Source: a virus
IMG/VR virus record: IMGVR_UViG_3300022561_000567
Coordinates: 1-12,995 of that record
Strand: one strand, 5' to 3'
DNA length: 12,995 nt
Positions within the stretch are counted from its first letter, which is position 1. Each line of letters starts with the position of its first letter. The position numbers were made by a program, and so were the translations under genes. Below are positions 1-12,995 of the stretch, in pieces. The notes under the pieces are model-generated. The model was not told where the DNA came from and did no database searches. It saw nothing but the letters and a program-made list of their open reading frames with translations.

Positions 1-127
1 TTAGTACCGGGCCGTGGATATATTGATATATGGACAGCTCAAAACCGTATATTGACCTGACCACATACCAACATAACCACAACCCCTACAGGCTACGATT
101 TTTATAATTTTCCCAAGAACTGGGGAA
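1..127. repeat. Terminal direct repeat, copy 1 (identical to 12869-12995)
   Basis: I aligned the two window ends by hand. ttagtaccgggccgtggatatattgat...cccaagaactggggaa occurs at 1-127 and again at 12869-12995 with no mismatch. The repeat runs to the last base of the window, as expected for a circular contig overlap or a direct terminal repeat. Confidence 0.95.
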
Positions 128-170
128 CGTTTTTGTTATCTCCAATAGGTAAATATGTTCAAATAAGGTA

Positions 171-192
171 TTGACTATCAATCTAGTATAAT
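171..192 (+). promoter_or_regulatory. Possible promoter for the large non-coding transcript
   Basis: TTGACT at 171-176 and a perfect TATAAT at 187-192 lie in an AT-rich tract just before the GC-richer structured region. The two hexamers are only 10 nt apart, so they cannot both belong to one canonical sigma-70 promoter. The -10 is the stronger element. Confidence 0.35.
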
Positions 193-640
193 GATAGGTC
201 CAGGTGGTGAGTGTAGCAGAGGAAGCCCTGCCCTGTCTAAGTTTGCAGGGCAATTAGGCTTATTTCGGTCCAGTATGGAGCCGCTCGCTTTCGTTGCTTG
301 TACACGTTATCCCTCTCGGTCTGGCATTATGGGTATGGTATCAAACCATGAACGTGTCTGCCTCATCTGCCGCTTGCATTTGCGGCATCCCAGGACGGTT
401 TTTCTCCTAGTGCATGCCCAGGAGATCACTTCAGGAGTCGCACCTGAAGGCATCGAGAAAACTAATATCCTTTTAACGGATGAGCCTCCACTGATGAACG
501 CGGAGCAAGATTCGGCGTCTCTTATGCCCTTCAGGGCATTAAAAAAAGACACCCAGCGAAATTCTTCCAATCGCTGTTTGTCCTACTGTCTGTTCTATTT
601 ATCAACCTATAACTAAATATATCACAATATTAGTTATTTT
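193..640 (+). ncRNA. Large structured RNA candidate, class unknown
   Basis: The segment is visibly GC-richer than its flanks. The overlapping ORFs 191-616 (+) and 307-570 (-) have no Shine-Dalgarno and give Cys/Arg/Ser-rich, non-protein-like translations. Hand folding finds many local helices: 223-227/257-261 with 231-235/246-250, 302-308/351-357 closing a multiloop, 368-373/382-387, 429-435/443-449, 524-529/534-539 and 554-559/571-576. A possible end-closing helix is 194-199/605-610, with 214-220 pairing to 589-597. An AT-only hairpin (ATAACTAA 609-616 / TTAGTTAT 630-637) followed by TTTTTAT could be a weak 3' end. Strand is assigned from the plus-oriented terminators downstream. Confidence 0.5.
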
Positions 641-644
641 TATC

Positions 645-674
645 TTGATTTTCACACCAAGAATGAGGTAAAAT
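645..674 (+). promoter_or_regulatory. Possible sigma-70-like promoter for a short RNA
   Basis: TTGATT (645-650), an 18-nt spacer, then TAAAAT (669-674). It lies about 50 nt upstream of a strong plus-strand terminator, with no ORF in between. Confidence 0.35.
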
Positions 675-680
675 ACATGT

Positions 681-765
681 AAGTATCCAACCTTGCTGAT
701 TGCGTAGAACAGTCAGTGGGACGCACCTCTGAACGGCTTGCCGGCTGTTCAGGGGTTTTTACTTT
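681..765 (+). ncRNA. Small RNA candidate of about 85 nt, or the 3' tail of the large RNA
   Basis: It sits between the putative promoter at 645-674 and the terminator at 726-765. It has an internal hairpin, ctgatt/agtcag, around 696-716. There is no start codon with an RBS. Confidence 0.3.
726..765 (+). terminator. Rho-independent terminator, plus strand
   Basis: A 12-bp stem pairs cctctgaacggc (726-737) with gctgttcagggg (744-755), including two G-U pairs, around the 6-nt loop ttgccg. It is followed by TTTTT (756-760) and cTTTTT. The reverse complement has no T-run, so it works in the plus direction only. Confidence 0.85.
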
Positions 766-873
766 TTATTTGATTAATAGCATATTTCTCCATAAAATTA
801 TTAATTCCTCTAAATAAAACAAAAATTTATAAAATATTGGGGAAGCCGTACCCCTCCATCACATAGACGAAGG

Positions 874-1305
874 CTAATCAAACAACTTTCCCCACCACGA
901 CTTTGGCTTTATATCGTTTTTAATATTTAATAACCGGAGTCTTTCATCCACCATTTTGTAATGCTCATTCAGCATTACGTCTTGCTTGTCCAGTTTTTCA
1001 TTAAGCACTTGAACTTGCTCTTTAAGTGGCTGCAACTCAGCCTGTACGGCACTAGTTACCGCACTTGCTATAGTGCGCGCCATAGCCTGTTCTAGCTCCG
1101 CCACGCTCACTGAGCGCGTTACTGGAATAACTTCAATATCTTGCATAGCCTTGTTGATCGTTTCTGCAGGGATCATCCACTGTAATCCGTAATCGCCAAT
1201 CTGTTTCTCAGCTTCAATTTCTTTTGACTTTATGCGTCTGCGTATAGTATCCTTTGAAACCTTCAATAAATCCGCACACTGTTCGATTGTGAGCCATTCA
1301 GCCAT
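874..1305 (-). CDS. Excisionase-type (HTH_17 / MerR superfamily) DNA-binding protein with a C-terminal coiled coil
   Basis: 143-aa ORF. The N-terminus, LTIEQCADLLKVSKDTIRRRIKSKEIEAEK, is the typical excisionase-family helix-turn-helix. The C-terminal half is heptad-like (LQPLKEQVQVLNEKLDKQDVMLNEHYKMVDERLRLL). A GGAGGT RBS lies 6 nt upstream of the ATG at 1305. Confidence 0.8.
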   Translation of the reverse strand: MAEWLTIEQCADLLKVSKDTIRRRIKSKEIEAEKQIGDYGLQWMIPAETINKAMQDIEVIPVTRSVSVAELEQAMARTIASAVTSAVQAELQPLKEQVQVLNEKLDKQDVMLNEHYKMVDERLRLLNIKNDIKPKSWWGKLFD

Positions 1306-1455
1306 GCTATAACCTCCACACGTTGCTTATATGTAATGCCTTATGATATTGCCATTCGGCACGATGATTATAAATCCTGCCAGTCGTGGCGGTAAAAAGG
1401 TGAAATATTAAAAAGTCTGCATAGGGTATCCCTATAATATTGCATAATGCACATG

Positions 1456-1482
1456 AAAAAAGCAGGGGTATTGGTCCCCTGC
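1456..1482 (-). terminator. Rho-independent terminator for the 2218-to-1504 operon
   Basis: On the minus strand, GCAGGGG accaata CCCCTGC (plus-strand arms 1462-1468/1476-1482) is followed by TTTTTT (plus-strand A-run 1456-1461). It lies directly downstream of the ORF ending at 1504. Confidence 0.75.
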
Positions 1483-1503
1483 AGGGCTGTTATTATTATT
1501 GTT

Positions 1504-1812
1504 CTATCGAACCGAACCGACAAAGTCCACTGTGGAAGATAATGTGTATTTTATTATTCTATTAACCGTACCCTCAAAACTAAGATCCAATTTTTTAGCT
1601 AAAACATCAATTTTAGCTATTAATTCAGCATCATCAATTGTTACAATCAAATCAACACTATCCATAATACACGCCCCTATTTTATTTATTTTGCATAATG
1701 CGACACAATTTGATAAAATAAGTGTATCGCAAGTTCCTGATTCGATCTTGCTGCAATCCCTGGCTCGTTCGCTATTAGTAGTAGTGAGCGGGCTTTTATT
1801 TATTTGTCCCAT
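1504..1812 (-). CDS. Ribbon-helix-helix (CopG/Arc-like) domain protein; start uncertain
   Basis: The C-terminal 50 aa, DLIVTIDDAELIAKIDVLAKKLDLSFEGTVNRIIKYTL, fit the strand-helix-helix pattern of RHH regulators. The long form starts at 1812 and overlaps the upstream stop, with a weak RBS. The internal ATG at 1665 has an AGGGG RBS 8 nt upstream and would give a 53-aa stand-alone RHH protein. The overlapping plus-strand ORF 1499-1822 looks spurious. Confidence 0.6.
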   Translation of the reverse strand: MGQINKSPLTTTNSERARDCSKIESGTCDTLILSNCVALCKINKIGACIMDSVDLIVTIDDAELIAKIDVLAKKLDLSFEGTVNRIIKYTLSSTVDFVGSVR

Positions 1813-2021
1813 TCTCGTTTAATAACTTCATGCGCATGGCAACTTACTAACCATTGCCCCTCAAGGCTCTTTATGACCACCATGAATCGTTCATCAGCAT
1901 CGATACTACTTTCAGTTACTACCATTCCTTTTGGTGGCACGCTCATTGATCCCCTGCAAGCAACAACCGTCATAACGACACTTTTTTCTTCTATTCCGAT
2001 ATTACACGTCCATTTACTCAT
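1800..2021 (-). CDS. Hypothetical protein, 73 aa
   Basis: The ORF is coupled to the upstream gene by an ATGA start/stop overlap at 2018-2021, and its own end overlaps the next ORF. I recognise no motif. Confidence 0.5.
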   Translation of the reverse strand: MSKWTCNIGIEEKSVVMTVVACRGSMSVPPKGMVVTESSIDADERFMVVIKSLEGQWLVSCHAHEVIKREWDK

Positions 2022-2218
2022 TGGTCGGCAGCTCCTTTTTTGGCCTTGCGAAGTTTTTCAACAGCTTCCTCGCTAAATAAGTAATTACGACTACCGGCTT
2101 CGCGCATTTCAGAATCATTAAGTTCTAGCTTGCGTGCCAGTTTAATTACATAAGAAGCATTTAATTTAAGGTCCTCAGCAACTTCACGAGTAATAAAAAC
2201 TGTTTTGACGTCTGACAT
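2018..2218 (-). CDS. Small MerR-like HTH DNA-binding protein, 66 aa
   Basis: The ORF track extends to 2266. The ATG at 2218 is preceded by AGGAGGTGG about 5 nt upstream and lies downstream of a near-consensus promoter, so I use 2218. The HTH-like segment TREVAEDLKLNASYVIKLARKL is followed by SRNYLFSEEAVEKL, which is typical of MerR-superfamily wings. Confidence 0.7.
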   Translation of the reverse strand: MSDVKTVFITREVAEDLKLNASYVIKLARKLELNDSEMREAGSRNYLFSEEAVEKLRKAKKGAADQ

Positions 2219-2237
2219 TAATCCACCTCCTGAGATA

Positions 2238-2266
2238 ATAATACTACGTTCGTTGTCGAATGTCAA
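2238..2266 (-). promoter_or_regulatory. Near-consensus sigma-70 promoter for the HTH operon, with an overlapping palindromic operator
   Basis: On the minus strand, TTGACA (plus 2261-2266), a 17-nt spacer, then TATTAT (plus 2238-2243). The perfect 10-bp palindrome AAACATGTTT (2265-2274) overlaps the -35. Confidence 0.7.
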
Positions 2267-2305
2267 ACATGTTTATAATAATATGTTTAAGGCTTTTTTA
2301 CGTCT

Positions 2306-2395
2306 GATAATAGAAACTTATCGGAAATATAATCGCGATTTTCGTGCATTTCAAATTAACGATAATAGAAACTTATGGATAACTAGAAACTAAAT
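2306..2395. repeat. Direct repeats GATAATAGAAACTTAT, two perfect copies plus one degenerate copy, in a divergent control region
   Basis: Identical 16-mers lie at 2306-2321 and 2361-2376, 55 bp apart. A third copy with a one-base insertion (gataaCtagaaact) lies at 2378-2392. All sit between the divergent genes starting at 2218 (-) and 2646 (+). Confidence 0.55.
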
Positions 2396-2520
2396 TAACA
2401 TAGCAAAAAATATCTACAGTTCACTCCCTGCAGGGATGTGCTCAACCTACCCTCTAACCTCCACACTTCGCCGCTACGCCATTTTATTATATAAGTAATA
2501 CATTTATACAACCTATGTAA

Positions 2521-2576
2521 TATATAAAGTGCTGGTCCTATCTTTAGGACTTCATCAGCACTTTATATATTTTTTT
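2521..2576 (+). terminator. Long hairpin plus T-run upstream of the MazF-like gene (terminator or attenuator)
   Basis: The outer stem pairs tatataaagtgctg (2521-2534) with cagcactttatata (2556-2569). The inner stem is gtccta/taggac (2535-2540/2545-2550), with a 5-nt bulge. It is followed by TTTTTTT (2570-2576). There is no T-run on the opposite strand. Confidence 0.55.
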
Positions 2577-2645
2577 CATTAAAAAGAAGGAAATAACTGG
2601 TTATCGTCTAATAATTTATCTGATTAATAGAAAAGAGGTATTGCA

Positions 2646-3257
2646 ATGTCTGACGAAATAGAATCAGTAGAAGTTCAAACCGCATTGGACGAAATCCAAA
2701 ATAGTCTTGAAGATTTAAAGCAGACTGTCATTATTAAGAATAAAAACCAAAACATTTGGCTAAAAAAAATGGAACATGGCCTAAAGATTATTAAATGGTC
2801 TAAAGAAAAATATAGGATGCAATTTATAGCTCCACCTCAATATGTTTTTCAGCGCGATATTTTCTATTGTCACTTAGGGGTAAATATAGGGCAAGAGGAG
2901 TATTGGGATAGGCCTGTCGTTGTATTGCAAAATGACTTAGGAAATAAAAGCTCCACTACTACAATTATCGCTCCAATTACAACTTGCGAGGGCAGCACTT
3001 TAAAAGAATTAAATGGGGAATGGTTTTTAGACTCGCTTGAATTGGACGGAACAACAAAAAGCAGAAAACTATATTACTTTGAAATCTGCGTAGAATTAGA
3101 ACCTAATTTTAAAAAAGAAATTAAAGGTATTATAAATTTAGCTCAAATAAGAGTCATAAGTAAAAAAAGGCTTATATCTCCTGATGTAGCTAAAATCACA
3201 GTCGGCACGAAAAATAAGATAAACCAATCATTAAAGCGACTTTTAAATATATGTTAA
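2646..3257 (+). CDS. PemK/MazF-family endoribonuclease toxin homologue with an N-terminal extension of about 60 aa
   Basis: 203-aa ORF with an AAAGAGG RBS 7 nt upstream. Residues 70-113, RDIFYCHLGVNIGQEEYWDRPVVVLQNDLGNKSSTTTIIAPIT, closely parallel the Bacillus MazF/NdoA core [43 protein letters not shown]. The C-terminal LAQIRVISKKRL matches LEQIRTIDKQRL. The first 25 residues hold 8 Asp/Glu and look helical. Confidence 0.85.
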   Translation: MSDEIESVEVQTALDEIQNSLEDLKQTVIIKNKNQNIWLKKMEHGLKIIKWSKEKYRMQFIAPPQYVFQRDIFYCHLGVNIGQEEYWDRPVVVLQNDLGNKSSTTTIIAPITTCEGSTLKELNGEWFLDSLELDGTTKSRKLYYFEICVELEPNFKKEIKGIINLAQIRVISKKRLISPDVAKITVGTKNKINQSLKRLLNIC

Positions 3258-3304
3258 AAAAAACCATTGCGCTAGATTGACACCTAGTCTATACTTAAGT
3301 CAAT

Positions 3305-3488
3305 ACAACATTTAGCGTTCGGTACTTTGTACAGAACAAACGGACAACTTTGAGCGGCCAGCATTTTATGCTGGCCAAACGTATAATATCTTTGATAATT
3401 GGGGCATATAATATAAAAACAACTTTTAGCGTCTTAGTTTTTACTAAGACAATAGCCAACTTTTAGCGGCCAGCATCTTATGCTGGCC
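3305..3488 (+). repeat. Four units of a conserved 12-13-mer, (A/C)CAAC(A/T)TT(T/G)AGCG, each followed by a 20-21-nt hairpin
   Basis: Unit 1 is acaacatttagcg (3305-3317) with hairpin 3317-3337 (gttcggtac ttt gtacagaac). Unit 2 is acaactttgagcg (3344-3356) with hairpin 3356-3376 (ggccagcat ttt atgctggcc). Unit 3 is acaacttttagcg (3419-3431) with hairpin 3431-3450 (gtcttagt tttt actaagac). Unit 4 is ccaacttttagcg (3456-3468) with hairpin 3468-3488 (ggccagcat ctt atgctggcc). The stem sequences differ between units but pairing is kept. Two TATAAT boxes (3382-3387 and 3407-3412) separate the two pairs of units. Confidence 0.7.
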
Positions 3489-3524
3489 ATTTACTTTACC
3501 CATTTTTTTTTAATACTTAATAAC

Positions 3525-3552
3525 AAAAAAAAGCCCTGACAATATCGTCAAG
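3525..3552 (-). terminator. Probable rho-independent terminator, minus strand
   Basis: On the minus strand, CTTGAC gatatt GTCAGG (6 bp including one G-U pair), then GC, then TTTTTTTT (plus-strand A-run 3525-3532). Confidence 0.5.
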
Positions 3553-3658
3553 ACTTTATCAGCACAACATATATAATTTTGCTAAGACAATAAAGCACGA
3601 TTGCAATGTCAATAATTATAAAAGTCATGCACGCCTGGTACATCAATAGCAATTCCAC
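3548..3658 (-). CDS. Possible 36-aa hydrophobic peptide (type I toxin-like or holin-like); not in the ORF track
   Basis: I translated this by hand. A GTG at 3658 lies 5 nt after GAGGTG. The product is (M)ELLLMYQACMTFIIIDIAIVLYCLSKIIYVVLIKS, with the stop at 3548-3550 inside the terminator hairpin. In-frame ATGs at 3643 and 3628 would give 31-aa and 26-aa forms. It is short enough to be a chance ORF. Confidence 0.3.
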   Translation of the reverse strand: MELLLMYQACMTFIIIDIAIVLYCLSKIIYVVLIKS

Positions 3659-3705
3659 GCTCTCACCTCATGGCTATTATTGCCATAAATAAGGTATTAA
3701 AATCA

Positions 3706-3900
3706 ATTTGGCGGATGGGACGGATTGGACGGAATTTCAATAAACTCTCTATATATACTATTCTCTCATGATGGTTTTACTATTATTATGTCCATTCCGT
3801 CAAAAAAAGAAATATAAAACAGTATAAAGCCATAGCACGTAAGGGTTTTCGGCATTTGGCGGAAGGGTAAAAAAAGGCGTTTATCCGCCTATTCCGCCAA
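3706..3900. repeat. Cluster of GG(C/A)CGGA(A/T) repeats: three in tandem, plus dispersed direct and inverted copies
   Basis: The tandem run is tggcggat / gggacggat / tggacggaa at 3709-3734. An inverted partner, gtccattccgtc, lies at 3790-3801. The 10-mer ATTTGGCGGA recurs at 3706-3715 and 3854-3863. An inverted TTGGCGGAAT lies at 3891-3900. Confidence 0.55.
3868..3890 (-). terminator. Weak terminator overlapping the stop codon of the 94-aa gene
   Basis: On the minus strand, AGGCG gataaa CGCCT (a 5-bp stem) is followed by TTTTTT. The short stem means low confidence. Confidence 0.4.
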
Positions 3901-4173
3901 TATTTTCTGTTCTTCGTCTTGAAAAAATGTAATTACCTTTTGAATTTTTAATTTCAGGCAATCAACTTCGTCGGTATTTTTATTGAGTTCAAATGCTTGC
4001 ATAGCTGATACTATTATTTTTTCCTTATCATCTAACCTTCCCCATAATTCTATAAATTTAATATGATCATTTTCTTCAGTAGCTTTAGATAAATCACCAC
4101 ATATTTTACATATATTATCTACAAACTCTTGATCCTTGCTAAACAGATCTACCCATTCATACATTTGAATCAT
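3889..4173 (-). CDS. Hypothetical acidic helical protein, 94 aa
   Basis: The ORF has an AGGGGGA RBS 7 nt upstream of the ATG at 4173. The sequence is rich in D/E/K and looks helical. I recognise no motif. It is convergent with the MazF-like gene. Confidence 0.6.
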   Translation of the reverse strand: MIQMYEWVDLFSKDQEFVDNICKICGDLSKATEENDHIKFIELWGRLDDKEKIIVSAMQAFELNKNTDEVDCLKLKIQKVITFFQDEEQKILAE

Positions 4174-4224
4174 TTATTAATCCCCCTATAAATTATTTGC
4201 AAAAACTAATTTTTTATATTTGAT

Positions 4225-4257
4225 ATTCCCTGGCGAAATGTTTTCTATGCAGGGAAT
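4225..4257. promoter_or_regulatory. 8-bp inverted repeat upstream of the 94-aa gene (operator or RNA hairpin)
   Basis: ATTCCCTG (4225-4232) and CAGGGAAT (4250-4257) are separated by 17 nt. The repeat lies about 50-80 nt upstream of the start at 4173. Confidence 0.35.
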
Positions 4258-4380
4258 TTTCATTGTGCCTGTTTGAAATACGCACTTAGGAGTTGACGCT
4301 TTTAGCTCTCAACTCGTGATAATGTTTTGCCATTCGCGGCCGCTCTTTGAACCTTCGGTTATTCCCTATTGGTGAAAATA

Positions 4381-4414
4381 AAAAGAACCTACTAAATTTA
4401 AAGTAGGTTCTTTT
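4381..4414 (-). terminator. Strong bidirectional rho-independent terminator after the tape-measure gene
   Basis: A 13-bp perfect stem pairs aaaagaacctact (4381-4393) with agtaggttctttt (4402-4414) around an 8-nt loop. It is flanked by an A-run on one side and a T-run on the other, so it has a U-tract on both strands. It lies 11 nt downstream of the stop at 4425. Confidence 0.85.
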
Positions 4415-4424
4415 TATTTATTAT

Positions 4425-6863
4425 TTAATAACCATTTGCTGTCTCTCCTAGCGCATTTAATAATGGGACCTTGATCCGGTCGGCCACTTTATCCGCTAGC
4501 GTGCTAATGTCTGTATCGTTATTTACCGTGGCATTTATTGGCATGCTAACTGTGATTGTATTCGTGGCGCCGACAGCCTTGGCTTGCTGCGGGAATTTCA
4601 GTATGTTTGTAATATCGCTAAACCCCTTCATTATTTCAGTTATTTGATATGCACTATTCCCATCAATTACCGTACTTCTTTTCATATCTCCAGGCAGATA
4701 CACGCCGCTTCGATTCCTAGAATAAACCTCTGCCTCTGCCTCTGCTGCCTTGTCTGCTAATACTTTTTCATGCGCTTTTTTATAAGCATCAGCTTTATTT
4801 TCGCCGGCCAATATTGCCGCCTTTACTGCTCTAATTTCCTCGCTTAATTCGGAATTAAGGGTATCTTTAAATAATTTTTGTTTTTGATGCTCAGCCAATT
4901 GTGTGGCTTTTACTTCATCATTGGTCTTTTTGATCCACTCTTGCCGCTCGATATCAATATCACGCAGCCGGTTCTCTAACGACGTGTGACTAATTTTATA
5001 TATTTCCGTTTCCATTTGTTCCGTGGATTTTTTGATTTCCTTGTTTTTATCATCAATAACTTTTTGCTGTTCCTTGGCGTCTTTATCTAAAATTATTTTT
5101 TTCCTGGCAGCGGATATTGTGGCCACGGTTTCATCTGAAACATTTGCCTCGGACAACTTAGCGCTCTTTACATCAACGTCGTGCAACTCATTTTCTAGCG
5201 CCGAATGAGTGGATTTATAAACCTCGTCGGCCATTTCAATTAACGCCGCCTTATTGGCCTTGGCTGCGTCCATTTCTTTTTTCTTAGCCGCAACTATAGC
5301 GCCGGCCTGATCGGCTGCGATCCGCTTCGTTTCCTCTGCTGCTTTTTTAGCATCGGCGACCGCTGTGTCTTTAATCGCTTTTTCATCAGCAGCAAATTTC
5401 GTCTGTACCGCGATTGCGTCAATTGCATCTTGCCGGTAATTATTTATGTGACCTTTTAGCGGCGTTAAATTCATAACGTCATTAACGACATTATCTAAAA
5501 GTGTATGCTTTTTCAATTGCATTAACCCAATTTTTAACTCTGTTAGCGCCTCGGTCGTTGAATGTATGCCGGAAATATCAAAAACAAATTTCGGGACGCT
5601 TAAAATTGCGGATCCCAGGTCTTTAACTAATTTTAAAAATTCAACCCCAACGCCAACCGTCGCGACAATTTCCTCTTTATTGTCTTTTACTGCGGTTATT
5701 AACGTATCAAATCCCGCGATAACTCCGGGCAAAATCTCTTTTGCAATCGGCATTAATGCCATTCCTAGCGCGTTCGACATTTGAGCTGATTCTAGATTTA
5801 AAACCTTAAATTCCACGGCTAAATCATGCGCCTGCTGCGGATCAATACCAATCGTTTTTATTCTGCTTGCGGCCTCCGCATTTATAGCATAATCACGTAA
5901 GACTGGAACCAGCGCGGCGCCTTTTGCCCCTAGAACATCAGCGACAAAGGCCTCTTCTTCTCCTGCTGCAGCCGCGTTTTTATAACCCTGGGCTAGCGCT
6001 GCCAATTGGTCATTCATCGGTAATAATTTTCCAGCTGAATCAAGAATGGAAAAATTAAATAACGTCATTGCATCAGTCAACGCGTTCCCGTTTTTTCCCA
6101 CGTTCATTACTGATTTATCCATTTTTATCATTGTTGAAATAAATATTTGTGAATCAACATCTGAAATTTTTAAAACTCTATTTAAACTTCCGGCCTCCGC
6201 TGCTGTTAAATTTAATCTTGCTGCTAGTTTATACGCTGCATCGCCAGCCTCAACCGCGCCTTTAACGACGTTAAATAAACCGGCTCCACTTGCGGCCACC
6301 GCTGCTAATGCAATCATTTTAGTATTTATCATCGTAAGCGCATTGCCGGCCGACGCGCCCGCGTCCCTAACTCGGCCTAATGATCCGGCCAATAACCCTG
6401 CCGCAGCGCTGGCGGCATTTGTGTTTCCGGTATTCAGCGAACCCCCTGCAGCACCTCCTGCCCTGGCTGCATTAGTTTCCTTCAATTGCCTGGCAAGATC
6501 CGCCTCGGCTTTTTGCTCTCTTAGCAACCTGGTTAAAATTCGCTGACTGGCTGCGTCGTCTGCTCCCTTGGCTGCAACTGATTCCTGGTATGTCGCATTA
6601 ATTAAACTAACCGCCTGCCTTTGTATGTTTAACTGATCGGTCAAATGTTTAGTTTTTACGGCTAGCGCCTCCGTAGACCTCTCGGCGCCGGCGAACGCTG
6701 ACATATCTATTTCCATTCGTAATTTTGATTGCTGCGCCTTGGTCTTTAAACTAGACATGCCTTGATTAACGGTTTTGCTAGCCGTGAGCAAATCAGAATC
6801 TAGCGCCGTCATGTCCAACCCTAACGATATAAATAATTTTTCAATTGTGGTCCCTGCGGCCAT
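4425..6863 (-). CDS. Phage tail tape-measure protein, TP901-family core
   Basis: 812-aa ORF with a GGGGTG RBS. It has an N-terminal coiled coil and an Ala/Gly-rich hydrophobic segment. The core region, AYKLAARLNLTAAEAGSLNRVLKISDVDSQIFISTMIKMDKSV...LGAKGAALVPVL, is typical of tape-measure core domains. The long K/E/A coiled-coil C-terminal half carries an internal repeat, EVYKSTHSALENELHDVDV / EIYKISHTSLENRLRDIDI, encoded near 5180-5230 and 4960-5010. Confidence 0.8.
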   Translation of the reverse strand: MAAGTTIEKLFISLGLDMTALDSDLLTASKTVNQGMSSLKTKAQQSKLRMEIDMSAFAGAERSTEALAVKTKHLTDQLNIQRQAVSLINATYQESVAAKGADDAASQRILTRLLREQKAEADLARQLKETNAARAGGAAGGSLNTGNTNAASAAAGLLAGSLGRVRDAGASAGNALTMINTKMIALAAVAASGAGLFNVVKGAVEAGDAAYKLAARLNLTAAEAGSLNRVLKISDVDSQIFISTMIKMDKSVMNVGKNGNALTDAMTLFNFSILDSAGKLLPMNDQLAALAQGYKNAAAAGEEEAFVADVLGAKGAALVPVLRDYAINAEAASRIKTIGIDPQQAHDLAVEFKVLNLESAQMSNALGMALMPIAKEILPGVIAGFDTLITAVKDNKEEIVATVGVGVEFLKLVKDLGSAILSVPKFVFDISGIHSTTEALTELKIGLMQLKKHTLLDNVVNDVMNLTPLKGHINNYRQDAIDAIAVQTKFAADEKAIKDTAVADAKKAAEETKRIAADQAGAIVAAKKKEMDAAKANKAALIEMADEVYKSTHSALENELHDVDVKSAKLSEANVSDETVATISAARKKIILDKDAKEQQKVIDDKNKEIKKSTEQMETEIYKISHTSLENRLRDIDIERQEWIKKTNDEVKATQLAEHQKQKLFKDTLNSELSEEIRAVKAAILAGENKADAYKKAHEKVLADKAAEAEAEVYSRNRSGVYLPGDMKRSTVIDGNSAYQITEIMKGFSDITNILKFPQQAKAVGATNTITVSMPINATVNNDTDISTLADKVADRIKVPLLNALGETANGY

Positions 6864-7087
6864 AAAGTCACCCCTTTTATAAAATACTTAAATTGTTATT
6901 TCTTTAAATACAATCCCCTGTATATTTGGACTGTAAGACCTCGAAACATAGGCTAAGTCTTAGACTACACCGGTCATGTAGCGGCTTGTGTATTGAGAGA
7001 ATAAGTAGCTTCGGCTTTCCGTAAACTTAATCTTCTTGTAAATACCGGGGGCCCTTACTATTTGCATACCAATACCTTGTTCCATGT

Positions 7088-7115
7088 AAAAAAATAAGGA
7101 CAGCCGAAGCTGCCC
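7088..7115 (-). terminator. Rho-independent terminator after the capsid gene
   Basis: On the minus strand, GGGCAGC TTCG GCTGTCC (7 bp with one G-U pair and a UUCG tetraloop; plus 7098-7115) is followed by TTATTTTTTT. It lies 16 nt downstream of the capsid stop. Confidence 0.85.
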
Positions 7116-7130
7116 CCCATTTTATTTTAA

Positions 7131-8327: not shown

Positions 8328-8413
8328 TTAACTTCACGCTCCATACTTTGATACACCAATATTAGGGAAGTGTGGCCCAGGTGCTCGGTAAATAACACTT
8401 ATTGTGCCGCCAA

Positions 8414-8485
8414 CCCATCCAGGCTGTCATGTAGGCTGTCCAGCGTCCATGCAAGGCTATATAAAGCCCAATCCAGGCTGTTATG
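8414..8485. repeat. Three copies of AT(CC/GT)AGGCTGT in the portal-capsid intergenic region
   Basis: ATCCAGGCTGT occurs at 8417-8427 and 8471-8481, and ATGTAGGCTGT at 8429-8439. The extended matches are cccATCCAGGCTGTcATGT (8414-8432) and cccaATCCAGGCTGTtATGT (8467-8485). The last copy overlaps the portal stop codon. Confidence 0.55.
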
Positions 8486-9704
8486 TCTGAATATTGTCTA
8501 TTGGTTTTAATAGCTTTTTGTCTACTCCTGCAAGCTGATAAGCTGCGGCGTTTTTTTGATCTACATAATTTAACGACTGCAGCCTGCGCGATCCTTCCTC
8601 GCCTCCTACTGGCGGGAACCCCAGGACAGACAATGCTTGATCTAAAGTTAATAGTGATAATGGCATTAATTCTTTTAACGCCGTTATTTTTGTTTTTTGT
8701 GAAGAAAACGCCATTCTCCCTGCAGTGTCAATGCTAATTGTATTACCCCAGGCTTGTTCCCTTTGCGTGAACATTTTAGCCGTCAAGGCTTGTCCTAGCG
8801 CGTTGGCGAAAGGCTCCAGGCTCGACTCTACGAAGCTAGAATATATATCTTCTGTAAAGGTACCATCAACAATAGCCTGGTTGATTCCTAAAAAACTAAG
8901 AATCTTTTTACTTACTGCCTCAATGTCTGCAGCATTAATAGTTATTGGCGTTTGATTAATTGGCGTATATGTAAACTTTGCATCTAGCGCGGCAATTGTT
9001 GAACCACCTGGCGCCAAATATGTTTTAATAAACTCTTGTCGTTGTTTTTCAAGATCCTCGGGCCTTAGTACGGAACTGTACGAAAGTATAGCTTTGATCG
9101 TTCCGCTAGTTTCAATATTTTTCTTTAATCCATCTGTTTGAGCTGTCGATAATGCAACCGCCGGAAGTATAGCCGCGTTTGAATCTCCTAGTAAGTCATT
9201 ACCATGGAATACTCTGCGAATATGCACGATATCAGCATAAGGCAATATTACTGTTTGCCCTGCAGCGAATATAAACTTGATATATAGCGCGCTTGATTGA
9301 TCTTGAACAAATTGTGCCGACGTCGGTTTTAATGGCCATAATGCATTCACGCTGCCGCCCCGGGACCATTCTATTAGTATAAATAGGTCACTATCGCTCC
9401 AATAAAGTGAAGCGCATTTATAAAGAAATTCACTCGCTGTACTAACCGGATTCGGCTGTATCGAAAGCAATCTATTTAGCTGCTGATCACCCGGACTTTG
9501 CGCGCCACTATAGGCGACTATGTGAGATATTTGCATTTTTGAAGCGTGACGGCTCACACTATCAACTGCGCTGAAAAATACGTCTGACTGTCTCAGATTG
9601 CCGCTAAATGCTGTAGATATGGCATTACCGCCACTAAGCATCATTACTTGTTCAGTTTTTTGCGGCTGTTCACGTGAGAATATTTTTTTTAAATCCTCAA
9701 ACAT
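8481..9704 (-). CDS. Portal protein, HK97 family
   Basis: 407-aa ORF with a GGAGG RBS 8 nt upstream. The pattern IQPNPVSTASEFLYK...LFILIEW...ALWPLKPTSAQFV...YIKFIFAAGQTVILPYADIVHIRRVF matches the conserved core of Phage_portal (HK97-type) proteins. The gene order portal then capsid agrees. Confidence 0.85.
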   Translation of the reverse strand: MFEDLKKIFSREQPQKTEQVMMLSGGNAISTAFSGNLRQSDVFFSAVDSVSRHASKMQISHIVAYSGAQSPGDQQLNRLLSIQPNPVSTASEFLYKCASLYWSDSDLFILIEWSRGGSVNALWPLKPTSAQFVQDQSSALYIKFIFAAGQTVILPYADIVHIRRVFHGNDLLGDSNAAILPAVALSTAQTDGLKKNIETSGTIKAILSYSSVLRPEDLEKQRQEFIKTYLAPGGSTIAALDAKFTYTPINQTPITINAADIEAVSKKILSFLGINQAIVDGTFTEDIYSSFVESSLEPFANALGQALTAKMFTQREQAWGNTISIDTAGRMAFSSQKTKITALKELMPLSLLTLDQALSVLGFPPVGGEEGSRRLQSLNYVDQKNAAAYQLAGVDKKLLKPIDNIQT

Positions 9705-9740
9705 TTATTTTTCCTCCAATTTTAAAATTAAGATAAAAGG

Positions 9741-10004
9741 TTATTTATTTATTTTTGTCAGAAATTTATCCCCGGGAAAATTCCCTGCATACCTAGATCC
9801 TGCAGATACTTGAACGCCTATTTGATTAATGTCAAATCCCATGCGTTTTATCGTTCGCTTGAAATTGCTTAATGGAACACGCCAACCGTATGGAGTTTTT
9901 TCAAACTCAGACCGTATTTTTTCAAAACAAAACCATTGAATTATTCCCGGATGTCCACATAATCGGAGCTTTAACCATTTAATTAACTCAGCATTATGGC
10001 CCAT
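9741..10004 (-). CDS. Hypothetical protein, 87 aa, immediately upstream of the portal
   Basis: The ORF track starts at a TTG (10022). The ATG at 10004 lies 5 nt after GGAGAGG, so I prefer it. It overlaps the preceding ORF by 11 nt, which suggests translational coupling. It occupies the position where a small terminase usually sits, but I see no recognisable motif. Confidence 0.55.
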   Translation of the reverse strand: MGHNAELIKWLKLRLCGHPGIIQWFCFEKIRSEFEKTPYGWRVPLSNFKRTIKRMGFDINQIGVQVSAGSRYAGNFPGDKFLTKINK

Positions 10005-10212
10005 CATTCCCTCTCCGTTCAATTCTTAAAAAATTACTTGGGCTTGCTGCATCGTCGATCCAGCCGTCTGTGCCCATATCCATGGAAAGTACATTTCCGT
10101 CGCTTGTTAGTGCTAAACAAATTATTGGTGATTCTATTTCCTGATTGTCATTTTTATAAATTGCAAATAGATTTTTAGGCGCTGGCATTATTTGAATTAT
10201 TTTATCTGTCAT
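9994..10212 (-). CDS. Hypothetical protein, 72 aa
   Basis: The ATG at 10212 has an AAGGAG RBS 8 nt upstream. It is the first gene after the origin. I recognise no motif. Confidence 0.6.
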   Translation of the reverse strand: MTDKIIQIMPAPKNLFAIYKNDNQEIESPIICLALTSDGNVLSMDMGTDGWIDDAASPSNFLRIERRGNDGP

Positions 10213-10229
10213 GTTTTTATCTCCTTTTT

Positions 10230-10481
10230 GTCTACCCTTTGTCTACCCTTTGTCTACCCTCGCCTAGACACCTTCAACCCTTATGAATACTAGCTTCGTG
10301 ACGTGTGTCTACCCTGTCTACCCAAATTTATACCCCTTTTCCCTGTTTGCCCCTCTATCTGTTTTTTACCAACTCTTTTAATAGAAAAAGGGTAGACAGG
10401 GTAGACAATGCCTTTCAGCCCTTATAAAACCTAGGTTTATTCTTGTCTACCCCCCTAGACATTTGCCTAGACAGGGTAGAC
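10230..10481. repeat. Iteron-type replication origin: nine GTCTACCC repeats plus three CCTAGACA repeats
   Basis: Forward GTCTACCC lies at 10230, 10241 and 10252 (11-bp phasing) and at 10307, 10316 and 10445. Reverse GGGTAGAC lies at 10390, 10399 and 10474. CCTAGACA lies at 10263, 10454 and 10466. The repeats flank a pyrimidine-rich, AT-rich core (10324-10389). The cluster abuts the 3' end of the VapE-like helicase gene and slightly overlaps it. Confidence 0.75.
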
Positions 10482-11933
10482 ATTTTCACGCTCCCAACCC
10501 ATGCTTTTTCCATACCCTGGAATTCTTATTTGCCCTTTTGTTTTAACCCATCCAGGCGCCTGGCTCATTACATCTCTGATTCGTCCTGCAGTTTGAGAAG
10601 TTAAATTTTCAATCCTACCATGTAAACACTCTAACCAAATAATTTCAGTAGACACACGATCACGCTTATTTTTCCCACATGTTATATCTTGATTTTCGTC
10701 AATGTATATTTGCCGCTCATAATCAGTTTTCACTTTCCAATCATATGGCAATGCAATTTCTAAGTAGTTTAATATCCTACCTTCCCATGCGTCGCAAATA
10801 ATAAACTCCTTCTGCACTAATACAGCTGCCTGTTCAATATCATCTGATAAATGTATTGGATCACCCGATTCATGTATCACTTTAGCCTCTGCAAGAATCT
10901 GATCGCGCTCTTTAGTTAAATCATAGAATACATTTTTACGACCACCAGCAAAAACTCTCACCGGCCAATACCTGCGATTTCCTGTAATATCTTTTAAAAA
11001 TTGATCCGAGTTCGTCGTTCCAACCGTTATGCTCATTCTCGGTATTTCCATGACATTTTTACCATATGGCGGTCTATAGCGGTCTATTTGTGCGCTGAAA
11101 AATAATTTTAATCTTTCTGATTCAGTCTTTTTGAGACTAGTTAACTCGCCCATTTCGCACAACCATTTCCCCCTATGTGATTCATAGGTTTTGGCAGGAT
11201 CATTAGTTATTGAAATTGAATCTGTGAACCATTGGCCGCCTAAGATATTGAATAATGTTGATTTTCCTATACCCTGGGCCCCTTTGAGAATTAAGCAGCA
11301 ATCAAATTTCACGCCTGGTTGATAAGCTCGGCGTACTAGAGCAGTCAATGTTTTTCGTGTGACTTGTCGTGTATACGGCGTATCCTCTGCGTTTTGATAG
11401 TCGATCAATAAAGTATCTACCCGCGGGACTCCGTCCCACTGCAGGGTATTTAAATAGTCCAGTAATGGATTATGCTGGATCTCCATGCAAAGCTCAGCAA
11501 AGGAATTATCAATAATACCGGTATTGGAAATACCATATTCATTATGAAAATAATTATAAAGAGCTTTATAATCTCCATCTGACAATAGTTTTTCTGTCGC
11601 TGTACTGTATTTATCGTCCTTCTGCGACCATGGCAGCCCTTTTGCTTTAAATGCGGCCGCGACCGTCATGTCGTAGCTAAATTTATCTTTTAATTTTGGA
11701 TCATTTTTAAAAATAATTAAGCAATTTGATGGAGTTTTTAACACCTTACCTTCGTCATTTCGCTTAAGGCTTCGCGTCCAGTCGGCAGCTGGCAAATTAA
11801 TTATTTTTTTAATTTTTGGATTTTCTGTTTTAGCGGCCGCCGGCGAATTACTATTTCCTTGAAAAGCCTTTAAATAAGCTGCTGATTGTCTACGTTTTGT
11901 CTCTTCTGTTTTGGCGGCCTTGTTAAAATCCAT
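10467..11933 (-). CDS. VapE/VirE-family P-loop replication helicase (satellite or phage Rep-like)
   Basis: 488-aa ORF. It has the Walker A motif LILKGAQGIGKSTLFNIL, then WLCEMGEL (Walker B-like), then IDRYRPPYGKNVMEIPRMSITVGTTNSDQFLKDITGNRRYWPVRV. This is the characteristic VirE/VapE C-terminal signature (RppYg...GTtN...D.TGnRRfwpv). Confidence 0.9.
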   Translation of the reverse strand: MDFNKAAKTEETKRRQSAAYLKAFQGNSNSPAAAKTENPKIKKIINLPAADWTRSLKRNDEGKVLKTPSNCLIIFKNDPKLKDKFSYDMTVAAAFKAKGLPWSQKDDKYSTATEKLLSDGDYKALYNYFHNEYGISNTGIIDNSFAELCMEIQHNPLLDYLNTLQWDGVPRVDTLLIDYQNAEDTPYTRQVTRKTLTALVRRAYQPGVKFDCCLILKGAQGIGKSTLFNILGGQWFTDSISITNDPAKTYESHRGKWLCEMGELTSLKKTESERLKLFFSAQIDRYRPPYGKNVMEIPRMSITVGTTNSDQFLKDITGNRRYWPVRVFAGGRKNVFYDLTKERDQILAEAKVIHESGDPIHLSDDIEQAAVLVQKEFIICDAWEGRILNYLEIALPYDWKVKTDYERQIYIDENQDITCGKNKRDRVSTEIIWLECLHGRIENLTSQTAGRIRDVMSQAPGWVKTKGQIRIPGYGKSMGWERENVYPV

Positions 11934-12096
11934 CTTTAGTCACCAACCGTATGCCGTGATTAATTTTCATCATGTTATTTACCGCGTCCATTGGCACTTT
12001 ATCGGATACCCCAAATAAATTTTTGGCATCAAGTTTTTCCTCGCGTCGTTTGATTTTTCGCTGCTCTCGTTGACGTTCTTTTTGATTTTTTGACAT
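11923..12096 (-). CDS. Small basic protein, 57 aa, translationally coupled to the helicase; not in the ORF track
   Basis: I translated this by hand as MSKNQKERQREQRKIKRREEKLDAKNLFGVSDKVPMDAVNNMMKINHGIRLVTKDGF. An AAAGGAG RBS lies about 10 nt upstream of the ATG at 12096. Its stop (11923-11925) overlaps the helicase start (ATGGATTTTAA). Confidence 0.5.
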   Translation of the reverse strand: MSKNQKERQREQRKIKRREEKLDAKNLFGVSDKVPMDAVNNMMKINHGIRLVTKDGF

Positions 12097-12163
12097 AATA
12101 AAAAACTCCTTTGCGGGTACTACCTTTGCAGCACATCCCGGCTTTATACCTCACTATATACTT

Positions 12164-12190
12164 TATATTATTCATTTGACGAGTATAACA
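12164..12190. promoter_or_regulatory. 27-bp operator box upstream of the small-ORF/helicase operon
   Basis: tatattattcatttgacgagtataaca matches the box at 12772-12798 at 23 of 27 positions. It is an imperfect palindrome and is embedded in A/T-rich -35/-10-like hexamers (TTATAC...TATAAA on the minus strand). Confidence 0.55.
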
Positions 12191-12206
12191 CGTTATAAAA
12201 TCCAGC

Positions 12207-12758
12207 CTAGACTGGATTTATACTAATTATCTTATTTAATCGTTTTATTTCAAGTTTCAATATTTCATTTTGTTCTAAAAGCTTTTCAGTACTTTTTTTA
12301 TAAAAATCTTTTTCTTCAATGATTTTAACAAAATCACGACCAGCTTCCCAATAATAATTCTGCCATAATTCAAAGAGTTTTCTTGATTTAATTCTTTCAT
12401 CCGCTGTCAGATAATCGCAGCTTTCTAAAAGATAATTATGATTAATTTCGGCTTGATCAATTTTTTTATCAATAACATCAATAAGTTCGTTTCTTGTGTA
12501 GCTACGCCCCTTGCGGCCGATAGGCAATATTTTTGACATTTCATCAATAGATATGCTTTCCATTTTCATTAACCACCATGAAGCAAAGAAACATTCAGCC
12601 GTATTATCAGGATAATCACTGAACCGACCTACTCCCCTACCTGTTGATCCACGCTCCGGAGCTGGTATTAGTTCAGCTTTTTCATATCTTAGTAGTGTGC
12701 TTCTACTAGTTTTAACACCCATTTTTATTAGCTTTTGTAAAACTTCTTCAGGACTCAT
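12207..12758 (-). CDS. MerR-type HTH regulator with a C-terminal coiled coil (candidate master repressor)
   Basis: 183-aa ORF with an AGGGGTGAGG RBS. The N-terminus, VKTSRSTLLRYEKAELIPAPERGSTGRGVGRFSDY, follows the MerR HTH-wing pattern (tlRyYek.GLi.p.r...g.R.Y). The C-terminal end is a heptad-like coiled coil (KSTEKLLEQNEILKLEIKRLNKII). Confidence 0.75.
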   Translation of the reverse strand: MSPEEVLQKLIKMGVKTSRSTLLRYEKAELIPAPERGSTGRGVGRFSDYPDNTAECFFASWWLMKMESISIDEMSKILPIGRKGRSYTRNELIDVIDKKIDQAEINHNYLLESCDYLTADERIKSRKLFELWQNYYWEAGRDFVKIIEEKDFYKKSTEKLLEQNEILKLEIKRLNKIISINPV

Positions 12759-12771
12759 AACCTCACCCCTT

Positions 12772-12823
12772 TATACTAATCATTTGATGAGTATAATATA
12801 ACATAATAAAAATACATGTGCAA
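12772..12823 (-). promoter_or_regulatory. Promoter of the MerR-type regulator with an overlapping 27-bp palindromic operator
   Basis: On the minus strand, TTGCAC (plus 12818-12823), a 17-nt spacer, then TATATT (plus 12795-12800). The operator tatactaatcatttgatgagtataata (12772-12798) overlaps the -10 and the start site, which is consistent with autoregulation. Confidence 0.6.
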
Positions 12824-12868
12824 GTCTTTTAGATTAAGTATTTGATTTGTATTAAATTAATGATCAGT

Positions 12869-12995
12869 TTAGTACCGGGCCGTGGATATATTGATATATG
12901 GACAGCTCAAAACCGTATATTGACCTGACCACATACCAACATAACCACAACCCCTACAGGCTACGATTTTTATAATTTTCCCAAGAACTGGGGAA
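12869..12995. repeat. Terminal direct repeat, copy 2 (identical to 1-127)
   Basis: Same 127-nt string as 1-127. The unique length is therefore 12,868 bp. Confidence 0.95.

Follow-up and report, generated by a model that had tools for sequence, protein, structure and literature searches.

A circular 12,868-bp element with portal and capsid genes of a satellite lineage and a siphovirus-related tape measure gene: a candidate episomal phage satellite

We analysed the virus record IMGVR_UViG_3300022561_000567 of IMG/VR over positions 1 to 12,995 (the whole of this 12,995-bp stretch of DNA is called the window below), and found that it represents a circular element with exactly three virion genes of two ancestries. 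The portal gene and the HK97-fold major capsid gene are of the type found in phage-inducible chromosomal islands that form capsids (cf-PICIs), and the third gene, for the tape measure protein (TMP), is related to those of siphoviruses. Our preferred reading, to which we assign a probability of roughly 0.55, is that the element is an episomal, plasmid-like, helper-dependent phage satellite that descends from Firmicutes cf-PICIs and whose host is probably an anaerobic member of the Bacillota (a Sporomusa-like Negativicutes bacterium). Gene content was established by profile searches of Pfam, PHROGs and NCBIfam, and the coordinates of all features are collected in Table 1.

In order to decide whether the element is complete, we examined the ends of the window and located other assemblies by exact look-up of the capsid and helicase proteins. 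The terminal overlap of 127 nt is the longest present and leaves a unit of 12,868 bp; GC across the window (12,995 bp) is 39%. The DNA at the junction is unique, without repeats, and no open reading frame (ORF) crosses it. An ENA assembly (L004, k141) closes with a 141-nt overlap and a JGI assembly (L005, 3300009774) with a 123-nt overlap, and both give a 12,868-bp unit that is 100% identical to the window. A Logan contig of 12,898 bp (L006, SRR5829598) represents the same circle, and a further ENA assembly (L007) has a unit of 12,857 bp. Each of these four is opened at a different point of the circle. One 11-bp iteron unit is the sole polymorphism among the five assemblies, which otherwise share 100% identity; such assemblies may be sister samples or re-assemblies, and they count here as independent assemblies, not as proven independent populations. 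The eight contigs that bear the capsid protein all have sizes of 10-20 kb, and none extends beyond the unit or shows host flanks. Closure of the same unit at differing breakpoints, together with the absence of any larger contig, shows that the circle (or else a genome with circular permutation) is real and complete. A preliminary description, made from the window alone, had already proposed a complete 12,868-bp replicon with satellite architecture, in which regulator, helicase and iteron origin are followed by morphogenesis genes, and had named as a threat to this view that the DNA might be a fragment of a larger phage. The first proposal is now borne out by closure in other assemblies, and the eight capsid contigs speak against the fragment. 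The minus-strand gene order given there (MerR, helicase, iterons, portal, capsid, tape measure, helix-turn-helix (HTH)) agreed with our profile searches as well. Two items were absent from it, a plus-strand gene for a MazF-like toxin and about 1 kb of non-coding DNA with a strongly structured GC-rich stretch.

The portal and capsid sequences place the element in the Firmicutes cf-PICI lineage, so that it is no orphan. Over 1,300 proteins are related to the capsid protein, and scans of genomes and metagenomes gave about 120 loci at 42-51% capsid identity. As read ORF by ORF, their layout is near-invariant: integrase, regulators, primase-helicase, portal, S78 protease, capsid, an ORF of about 91 aa, HNH, a candidate small terminase subunit (TerS) of about 115 aa, a 546-aa large terminase subunit (TerL), and a connector of about 107 aa. 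This layout matches the Firmicutes group 1 cf-PICIs of Alqurainy et al. 2023 (bioRxiv 10.1101/2022.09.08.507074), and several of these relatives are circular contigs of 12.6-14.2 kb. None of the roughly 120 loci has a TMP gene directly after the capsid gene; three carry full tail modules and are apparently ordinary phages. A metagenome scan based on a narrow alignment of the capsid yielded ordinary cf-PICIs (42-51%) only and no new close relatives, and scans of viral contigs with the TMP and with a portal alignment gave nothing new. The portal is about 40% identical to those of cf-PICIs, 69% to that of contig L129, 70% to that of an island in Sporomusa silvacetica and 78% to that of contig L138, and the capsid protein reaches 68% with the Sporomusa island. 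The capsid protein also matches NCBIfam major_cap_HK97 (TIGR01554, 9.2e-42) and begins with a delta or scaffold region of about 130 aa. Both genes are intact. For the portal gene, dN/dS against L138 was 0.06; for the capsid gene it was not computable, synonymous sites being saturated against the closest full-length relative.

At a portal identity of at least 69%, the close relatives form four protein clusters, namely those of the window, L138, L129 and the Sporomusa island. L138 is a 4.4-kb fragment with a primase-polymerase/D5 helicase, a portal and a protease. L129 (Ga0316604_10000594, positions 559-7957) carries an integrase, the portal, an S78 protease, a capsid gene and a SpoVG-like gene, followed by an AAA_21/RloB pair and housekeeping genes, and looks like a truncated or decayed island of the same subclade with defence-type cargo. 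The closest full-length relative lies between minE and ftsW/rodA, at 2.037-2.052 Mb, in S. silvacetica DSM 10669 (CP155573.1). This island is composed of a MerR-like regulator, an HTH gene, an NrS-1 primase-polymerase with D5 helicase, two small ORFs, portal, S78 protease, capsid, a SpoVG-like gene, a 120-aa ORF, a 970-aa TMP_3 protein, small ORFs, and a tyrosine integrase, and no terminase was found in it. Since it joins portal, capsid and TMP genes and lacks a terminase, it is an integrated sister of the window with the same portal-capsid-TMP design. The TMP was found in other settings too. In L013 (Logan SRR15035647_12272, positions 175-9756) a TMP homologue of 865 aa, 53% identical over half its length, is found together with a tyrosine integrase, a DnaG-type zinc ribbon/primase, a D5 helicase, a Terminase_4 TerS and a 207-aa ORF. 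L013 has no capsid genes and, as judged from its gene content, represents a second kind of satellite-like element with a TMP, a PICI-like island. One complete phage with this TMP type was found, encoding TerL, portal, an S78 protease (38% identical to the protease of the satellite lineage) and a major capsid protein.

The 812-aa protein of the window is a real TMP, in keeping with the preliminary assignment: it is 67% identical to one that sits in a canonical siphovirus tail module. Its homologues include P0002 (67%), P0003 (59%), P0007 (50%), P0010 (37%) and others. Five homologues with 34-72% identity (local alignments, with partial coverage for some) lie between the tail chaperone and distal tail genes, in modules that run head-tail connector, gp10-like, tail completion, tail tube, tail chaperone, TMP, distal tail, holin and amidase. 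Against the TMP gene of the L009 phage, the gene of the window is 76% identical at the nucleotide level over 1.2 kb. Compared with the closest phage TMP, the protein is 70-92% identical in residues 1-400 and 64-86% in residues 550-700, but only 12-38% in residues 400-550; overall dN/dS was 0.11. The TMPs of the window and of the Sporomusa island share no detectable similarity, which suggests that each was taken from, or tracks, its own helper. No tail chaperone was found with the gene: a 267-nt gap lies upstream of it, and phmmer comparison with phage chaperones was negative. As side observations, the divergent segment 400-550 recalls the short region of the ICP1 TMP that is targeted by the PLE11 protein Rta, and three independent phage contigs with TMP homologues (L009, L011 and L012) all start just upstream of the head-tail connector genes. 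Assembly thus breaks at the head-tail module boundary in these three contigs, perhaps since their head modules are variable or shared in the samples.

To search for the functions that a cf-PICI would be expected to carry, hidden Markov models (HMMs) were built from 38-89 copies of each cf-PICI module protein, namely TerL (71), HNH (89), the TerS candidate (53), integrase (38), protease (85), the post-capsid ORF and the post-TerL ORF, and were run on six-frame translations of the window. None gave anything at E <= 10. An integrase was also without a match in Pfam, PHROGs or NCBIfam, and for a head-tail adaptor or connector there was no Phage_HCP or gp10-like match in Pfam. Other tail genes and lysis genes were not detectable in the window, no tRNA or tmRNA genes were found there, and PADLOC reported no defence system. 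The earlier statement that integrase, terminase, protease and adaptors are not recognisable has thus withstood Pfam, PHROGs, NCBIfam, PADLOC and the custom models, and profile searches of the ORFs brought up no cryptic terminase, protease, adaptor or recombinase family.

The position of the protease deserves particular attention. The S78 prohead protease is present in relatives L014, L129 and L138, and the protease gene overlaps the end of the portal gene in all three closest relatives; the window was negative by tblastn and by the 85-sequence HMM and has a short gap at this place. As all three closest relatives keep the protease, its loss is recent. Two copies of a 19-nt direct repeat (89% identical) lie in this region at 8414-8432 and 8468-8486, the second reaching the portal stop codon, and they may be a deletion scar or a regulatory site. 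The three long structural ORFs, in turn, occupy 4.9 kb or 38% of the replicon, and are intact, with gene-like codon scores and ribosome-binding sites (RBS). The unit of 12.87 kb stays inside the 12.6-14.2 kb range of cf-PICIs, with the genes for HNH, TerS, TerL and connector (about 2.6 kb) exchanged for a TMP gene of 2.4 kb.

One further protein was considered for a packaging role. The 143-aa protein passes the cutoff of the excisionase-domain family TIGR01764 (33.8 bits against 28.8), and its AlphaFold2 (AF2) model (pLDDT 78) shows a winged HTH plus a 63-residue helix. A profile search of the PDB returned excisionase (4j2n) and MerR. Of the 267 proteins in its family, the majority hit excisionase or MerR PHROGs, and weak matches to the TerS family phrog_57 were seen for 17 of 60 as well. 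With Foldseek the model gave nothing significant, the best match being MerR/SoxR at E 0.84 and a TerS ranking 47th. We rejected it as a TerS of the cf-PICI type, hhalign giving a probability of 0.3% against the cf-PICI TerS family; in view of the weak phrog_57 matches it might still be a non-homologous TerS analogue. The excisionase-type HTH fold is common in plain regulators as well.

The replication module points to a plasmid-like life. The 183-aa MerR-like regulator is the first gene of a long minus-strand operon, and in its N-terminal part it shares 41% identity with the gene that opens the Sporomusa island. The VapE protein aligns to positions 357-795 of the 798 positions of phrog_256, so that the N-terminal primase part of the family is absent. 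With regard to the replication and regulator module of cf-PICIs, the window has VapE, iterons and a MerR-like HTH protein but showed no primase domain and no AlpA match. Nine exact GGGTAGACA iterons lie at 10229-10482, within 254 bp, and include a tandem array of 11-bp units. With one mismatch allowed, GGGTAGACA has 11 matches against 1.3 expected, a count that none of 200 shuffles reached. Clustered direct and inverted repeats beside a helicase gene, the mark of an iteron-type replicon, are thus found. The tandem 11-bp iteron TTTGTCTACCC at 10227-10259 is present in three copies in the window versus two in L007. The iteron sequence of the window did not cluster in other VapE-bearing loci. A weak match to the Rfam 'DUF2815 RNA' was observed on the minus strand at 10210-10249, and is made up of a DNA iteron GGGTAGAC together with the RBS and initiation codon of the 72-aa ORF. 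In the window, the origin iteron and the motif's conserved 5' block are identical, and the DUF2815 RNA motif may, here at least, be a DNA binding site instead of an RNA structure.

We propose the following course of events for such a satellite. It would replicate as a plasmid from the iteron origin, with priming by the host or the helper. During growth of an L009-type helper siphovirus, small shells of cf-PICI size would be built from the portal and capsid proteins of the satellite and matured by the S78 protease of the helper. Maturation by the helper is plausible since the complete phage with this TMP type encodes an S78 protease, and the unit length within the cf-PICI range suggests that the size constraint of a small capsid still applies. 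The HNH, TerS and TerL proteins of the helper would then package satellite DNA at a mimicked cos or pac site, for which the candidates are the 3300-3490 repeat array and the non-coding region of 1 kb; packaging at a copied site is known for P4 and for cos-type SaPIs. Finally, helper connectors and tail parts would complete the particle around the satellite TMP, giving a chimeric tail by analogy with the PLEs (elements resembling phage-inducible chromosomal islands).

Several points weigh against this proposal. The portal is only 30% and the capsid protein only 25% identical to those of the complete phage with this TMP type, so that helper compatibility in terminase, protease and connectors is an assumption, and we found no non-coding sequence common to the window and any phage locus examined. 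The loss of the protease, the integrase and the two genes between capsid and TMP could equally mark decay. With assemblies that are 100% identical, evidence for selection on the lineage is absent at the population level, and the subclade, at four protein clusters, is tiny.

Decay is the core of the foremost competing account, which we consider doubtful and in which the element is a cf-PICI-derived relic that survives as a plasmid by its helicase-iteron replicon and its toxin, is not packaged, and carries its structural genes as leftovers. The window is the most reduced member of its subclade, the protease being kept by all three closest relatives and the integrase by the Sporomusa island; L129 shows decay of the lineage in chromosomes, coding density is 75%, and plasmid-like features are present. 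However, the three long structural ORFs have remained intact, the protease was removed cleanly with no pseudogene debris, the length of the unit still fits the capacity of a cf-PICI capsid, and the TMP keeps its 70-92% identity to a phage TMP over 400 residues with low dN/dS. An unlikely idea of another kind concerns the use of the TMP, which in this plasmid-borne cf-PICI relative might be the resistant allele in a tail-targeting conflict, following the logic of PLE11 Rta and its TMP target. The satellite, perhaps via the 94-aa acidic protein, or an injection block of the helper would then disable the helper TMP and spare that of the satellite, and portal, capsid and TMP would be the minimum set for particles usable by the satellite only.

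That the circle is the excised or replicating form of an integrative island, integrated in trans by a helper or host recombinase with the possible aid of the two excisionase-family HTH proteins, is clearly unlikely. The existence of these two proteins, with the 143-aa one above the TIGR01764 cutoff, would fit it, as would nearest relatives that are chromosomal islands with tyrosine integrases; yet no capsid contig of the eight exceeds the unit or shows host flanks, profiles and the 38-sequence HMM found no integrase in six frames, the window holds no tRNA gene as a common integration target, and plain regulators often have the excisionase-type fold. Still less do we favour a satellite of a satellite, very improbable in our judgement, which would draw terminase, protease and connectors from a co-resident canonical cf-PICI and the tail from a phage. 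The portal (about 40%) and capsid (about 45%) are closer to cf-PICIs than to the TMP-sharing phage, and the absent genes are exactly the remaining packaging operon of a cf-PICI, but a scan of one genome per species found one capsid locus of the family in S. silvacetica, the terminase-less island itself, so that for the sister at least a cf-PICI partner was not detectable in this way, and the retention of own portal and capsid genes would be left unexplained. Finally, it is scarcely credible that the circle is an artefact of assembly or a falsely closed piece of a larger phage. A k-mer-length overlap of the ends can occur in any de Bruijn contig bounded by repeats, but here five assemblies (k = 127, 141 and other values) share the unit length at different breakpoints, the junction is not repetitive, larger contigs were not seen, and a megablast near-identity search of phage and plasmid collections returned no match to the window.

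The SatelliteFinder model for cf-PICIs has 11 core components, requires at least 9 and forbids tail or holin genes (PMC10085698). At most 3-4 of the 11 are found in the window. It has the capsid and portal of the lineage, does not have the integrase, the S78 protease, HNH/TerS/TerL or connectors, and does contain a tail gene, that of the 812-aa TMP. By the descent of its head genes, as far as sequence comparison tells, the element belongs to the cf-PICI lineage, and by definition it is not a cf-PICI. The preliminary view that it fits no described family holds to the extent that most defining features of a cf-PICI are missing and a forbidden tail gene is present; it does not hold in so far as the head genes are of cf-PICI lineage and a sister exists in Sporomusa. 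The likeness to cf-PICIs extends to homologous portal and HK97 capsid genes in the same order, a regulator/replication module upstream of them, the size, and a tail that comes from the helper (inferred for the window). The window differs in being a circle and not a chromosomal island, and in having a helicase only in place of a primase-helicase, besides the genes that it lacks and the TMP that cf-PICI definitions exclude. With the Sporomusa island it shares, apart from the portal and capsid identities (70% and 68%), the same layout including small HTH ORFs, and the want of a terminase. In contrast to the window, the island encodes both a tyrosine integrase and an S78 protease, with a SpoVG-like and a 120-aa gene inserted between capsid and TMP; its replication protein is an NrS-1 primase-polymerase/D5 helicase and not VapE, its 970-aa TMP is unrelated, and it has no MazF.

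Satellites that carry a TMP have already been published (PLEs, EPIPs and some cf-PICIs), and the window does not represent a new category in this respect. In the PLEs of Vibrio cholerae it was shown experimentally that the satellite's own TMP replaces that of the helper in chimeric tails (Nature 2026, PMC12987554), and Extended Data Fig. 10 of the same paper presents putative tmp genes in some cf-PICIs. The window resembles PLEs in encoding a TMP. PLEs differ from it in that they share no sequence kinship with it, are integrated, remodel the capsid protein of the helper and encode none, have in addition a tail chaperone and a baseplate hub, and exploit a myovirus. The EPIPs of Mycolicibacterium are 11-kb satellites with capsid protein and TMP that also occur as circular contigs (bioRxiv Dec 2025, PMC12822802). 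Compared by their description, EPIPs are like the window in these traits and differ in having TerS, a head-tail adaptor, a stopper, a scaffold and a serine integrase, in listing no portal, and in their actinobacterial host. Persistence without integration is known for P4 (in its plasmid state), MiniFlayer and some VEIMEs, and P4 uses the helper terminase via a copied cos site (PMC10690885). Unlike the window, P4 encodes no capsid protein, portal or TMP, whereas MiniFlayer has its own TerS and TerL and no known plasmid functions. In the literature examined we did not find described the combination seen here, that is, a cf-PICI portal and capsid, a TMP of helper type, a helicase-iteron episome and a MazF-like toxin, with no terminase, protease, connectors or integrase.

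If the element is a working satellite, it would be the most reduced capsid-forming satellite described so far, retaining no more than shell protein, portal and tail ruler, handing DNA packaging and capsid maturation to the helper, and persisting without integration. It would mean that the packaging module of a cf-PICI can be traded for a tail gene, and would add a Gram-positive/Negativicutes example to the theme of satellites that manipulate tails. Such elements would be missed by current satellite finders by design, as these demand no fewer than 9 of 11 core genes along with an integrase, and disallow tail genes. The integrated sister in the cultured S. silvacetica DSM 10669 makes the idea experimentally approachable.

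Table 1. Positions of the features found in the window, with the evidence for each
Feature	Position	Strand	Evidence or remark
Terminal overlap	1..127 (= 12869-12995)	non-coding DNA	exact 127-nt match; marks circular closure
GC-rich structured non-coding stretch	190..765	+ or -	GC 0.50-0.53; candidate non-coding RNA
Terminator, 14-bp stem	725-765	+	consensus scan
Excisionase-family winged HTH + 63-residue helix, 143 aa	874..1305	-	HTH_17 3.1e-9; own promoter and terminator
Three small ORFs: 82 (probably 66), 73 and 102 aa	1504..2266	-	82-aa ORF: phrog_2655 1.4e-5
Divergent control region	2267..2645		best sigma-70-like promoter; two 16-nt direct repeats; perfect 16-nt inverted repeat; consensus matches only
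MazF/PemK-like toxin, 203 aa	2646..3257	+	Pfam PemK_toxin 1.5e-14; PDB EndoA/MazF 1e-7
Repeat array	3300..3490		two 55-nt modules with GGCCAGCAT-N3-ATGCTGGCC hairpin; four CAACWTTKAGCG 12-mers
Acidic all-helical ORF, 94 aa	3889..4173	-	adjoins TMP gene; no family match (Pfam, PHROGs)
Perfect hairpin, 18-bp stem, after TMP gene, likely terminator	4376..4419		repeat and consensus scans
Tape measure protein (TMP), 812 aa	4425..6863	-	phrog_18863 1e-102; TMP phrog_1293 1.5e-9
Terminator-like hairpin just 3' of capsid gene	7096..7117	-	consensus scan only
HK97-fold major capsid protein, 398 aa	7131..8327	-	Pfam Phage_capsid 1.8e-27, residues 134-395
Gap of 153 nt at protease position of close relatives	8328..8480		no protease remnant by tblastn or HMM
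Portal protein, 407 aa	8481..9704	-	Pfam Phage_portal 3.7e-34
93-aa ORF	9741..10022	-	no Pfam/PHROGs match; gene callers give 87 aa; called in all assemblies
72-aa ORF, conserved phage family	9994..10212	-	phrog_8653 2e-21
Iteron origin (predicted)	10216..10482		nine exact GGGTAGACA copies, both orientations; reaches into 3' end of VapE gene
VapE-type replicative helicase, 488 aa	10467..11933	-	Pfam VapE-like 4.6e-72
Basic ORF, 57 aa	11923..12096	-	no family match (Pfam, PHROGs); gene-like codon score
MerR-like HTH regulator, 183 aa	12207..12758	-	Pfam MerR 4.8e-05, under gathering score

Among the smaller genes, the 72-aa ORF has a homologue, 52% identical, upstream of the portal gene in a cf-PICI locus (L032). 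The neighbouring 93-aa ORF gave one 23.6-bit match to a 109-residue PDB chain named H12 (8fjg, E 4e-4), which is not interpretable; apart from this, the remaining small ORFs gave no match among solved structures. In the operon of three small ORFs, none of which matched a solved PDB structure, the 82-aa product is by profile match an excisionase or MerR-type HTH protein, the 102-aa product has a counterpart with 51% identity in the Sporomusa island, and the C-terminal half of this 102-aa product looks like a ribbon-helix-helix domain when judged by eye. By consensus scan, the strongest promoter of the window heads this operon, divergent from the toxin gene. This sigma-70-like promoter (TTGACA, 17-nt spacer, TATTAT) was observed at 2238-2266 and overlaps the TTG with which the 82-aa ORF opens, so that translation probably begins at an internal ATG instead and yields 66 aa, as in the JGI annotation.

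The gene for the MazF-like protein is the only one on the plus strand, and its product, in which the toxin domain is unmistakable, has an N-terminal extension of 66 aa. No antitoxin ORF was found beside it, either upstream (at least 40 aa) or downstream. The toxin may stabilise the element; with no antitoxin visible, an addiction role is a guess and counts among the points that weaken the satellite reading.

The acidic 94-aa ORF next to the TMP gene was modelled as a helical bundle (AF2 pLDDT 64), for which Foldseek found no significant match in the PDB or BFVD. Its assignment as an HNH protein was rejected, as tblastn matches from HNH proteins were weak (E 0.01-0.03) and due to a single CxxC motif, and the HNH HMM was unsupportive. 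Fold searches were uninformative on a tail chaperone or an Rta-like protein, and these assignments were dropped as well.

A non-coding stretch of 983 bp (12759-12868 plus 1-873) spans the junction of the circle. Within it, at 190-640, GC rises to 0.50-0.53 versus 0.39 overall, fold z-scores against shuffles were -5.2 (minus strand) and -3.2 (plus strand), and the region 190-765 is a probable structured RNA. All gene callers place a 141-aa plus-strand ORF at 191-616, which we rejected: its codon score is -0.20, where real genes reach 0.17-0.61, an RBS is lacking, and a TATAAT overlaps the start codon. The Rfam family EGFOA (RF02955) matches at 301-416 on the minus strand below threshold (26.8 bits against a gathering score of 37.7, E 0.18). 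EGFOA RNAs sit in unusually large gene-free intergenic regions (preprint 10.64898/2026.07.01.735769), which the setting in the window fits, but neither the relatives nor a pattern search of viral contigs gave EGFOA hits. Distant DNA searches with the RNA-like region returned no matches, and nhmmer with all six intergenic regions found nothing in 130 loci.

The repeat array lies in the 631 nt that separate the 94-aa ORF from the toxin gene, the two genes being convergent. Its four CAACWTTKAGCG 12-mers compare with 0.02 expected by chance, and the array is, plausibly, a protein-binding site that serves either as packaging signal or as operator. Terminator-like hairpins were placed by consensus scan after the capsid gene, the TMP gene and the 94-aa ORF, and the one at 7096..7117 may act as an attenuator before the tape measure gene.

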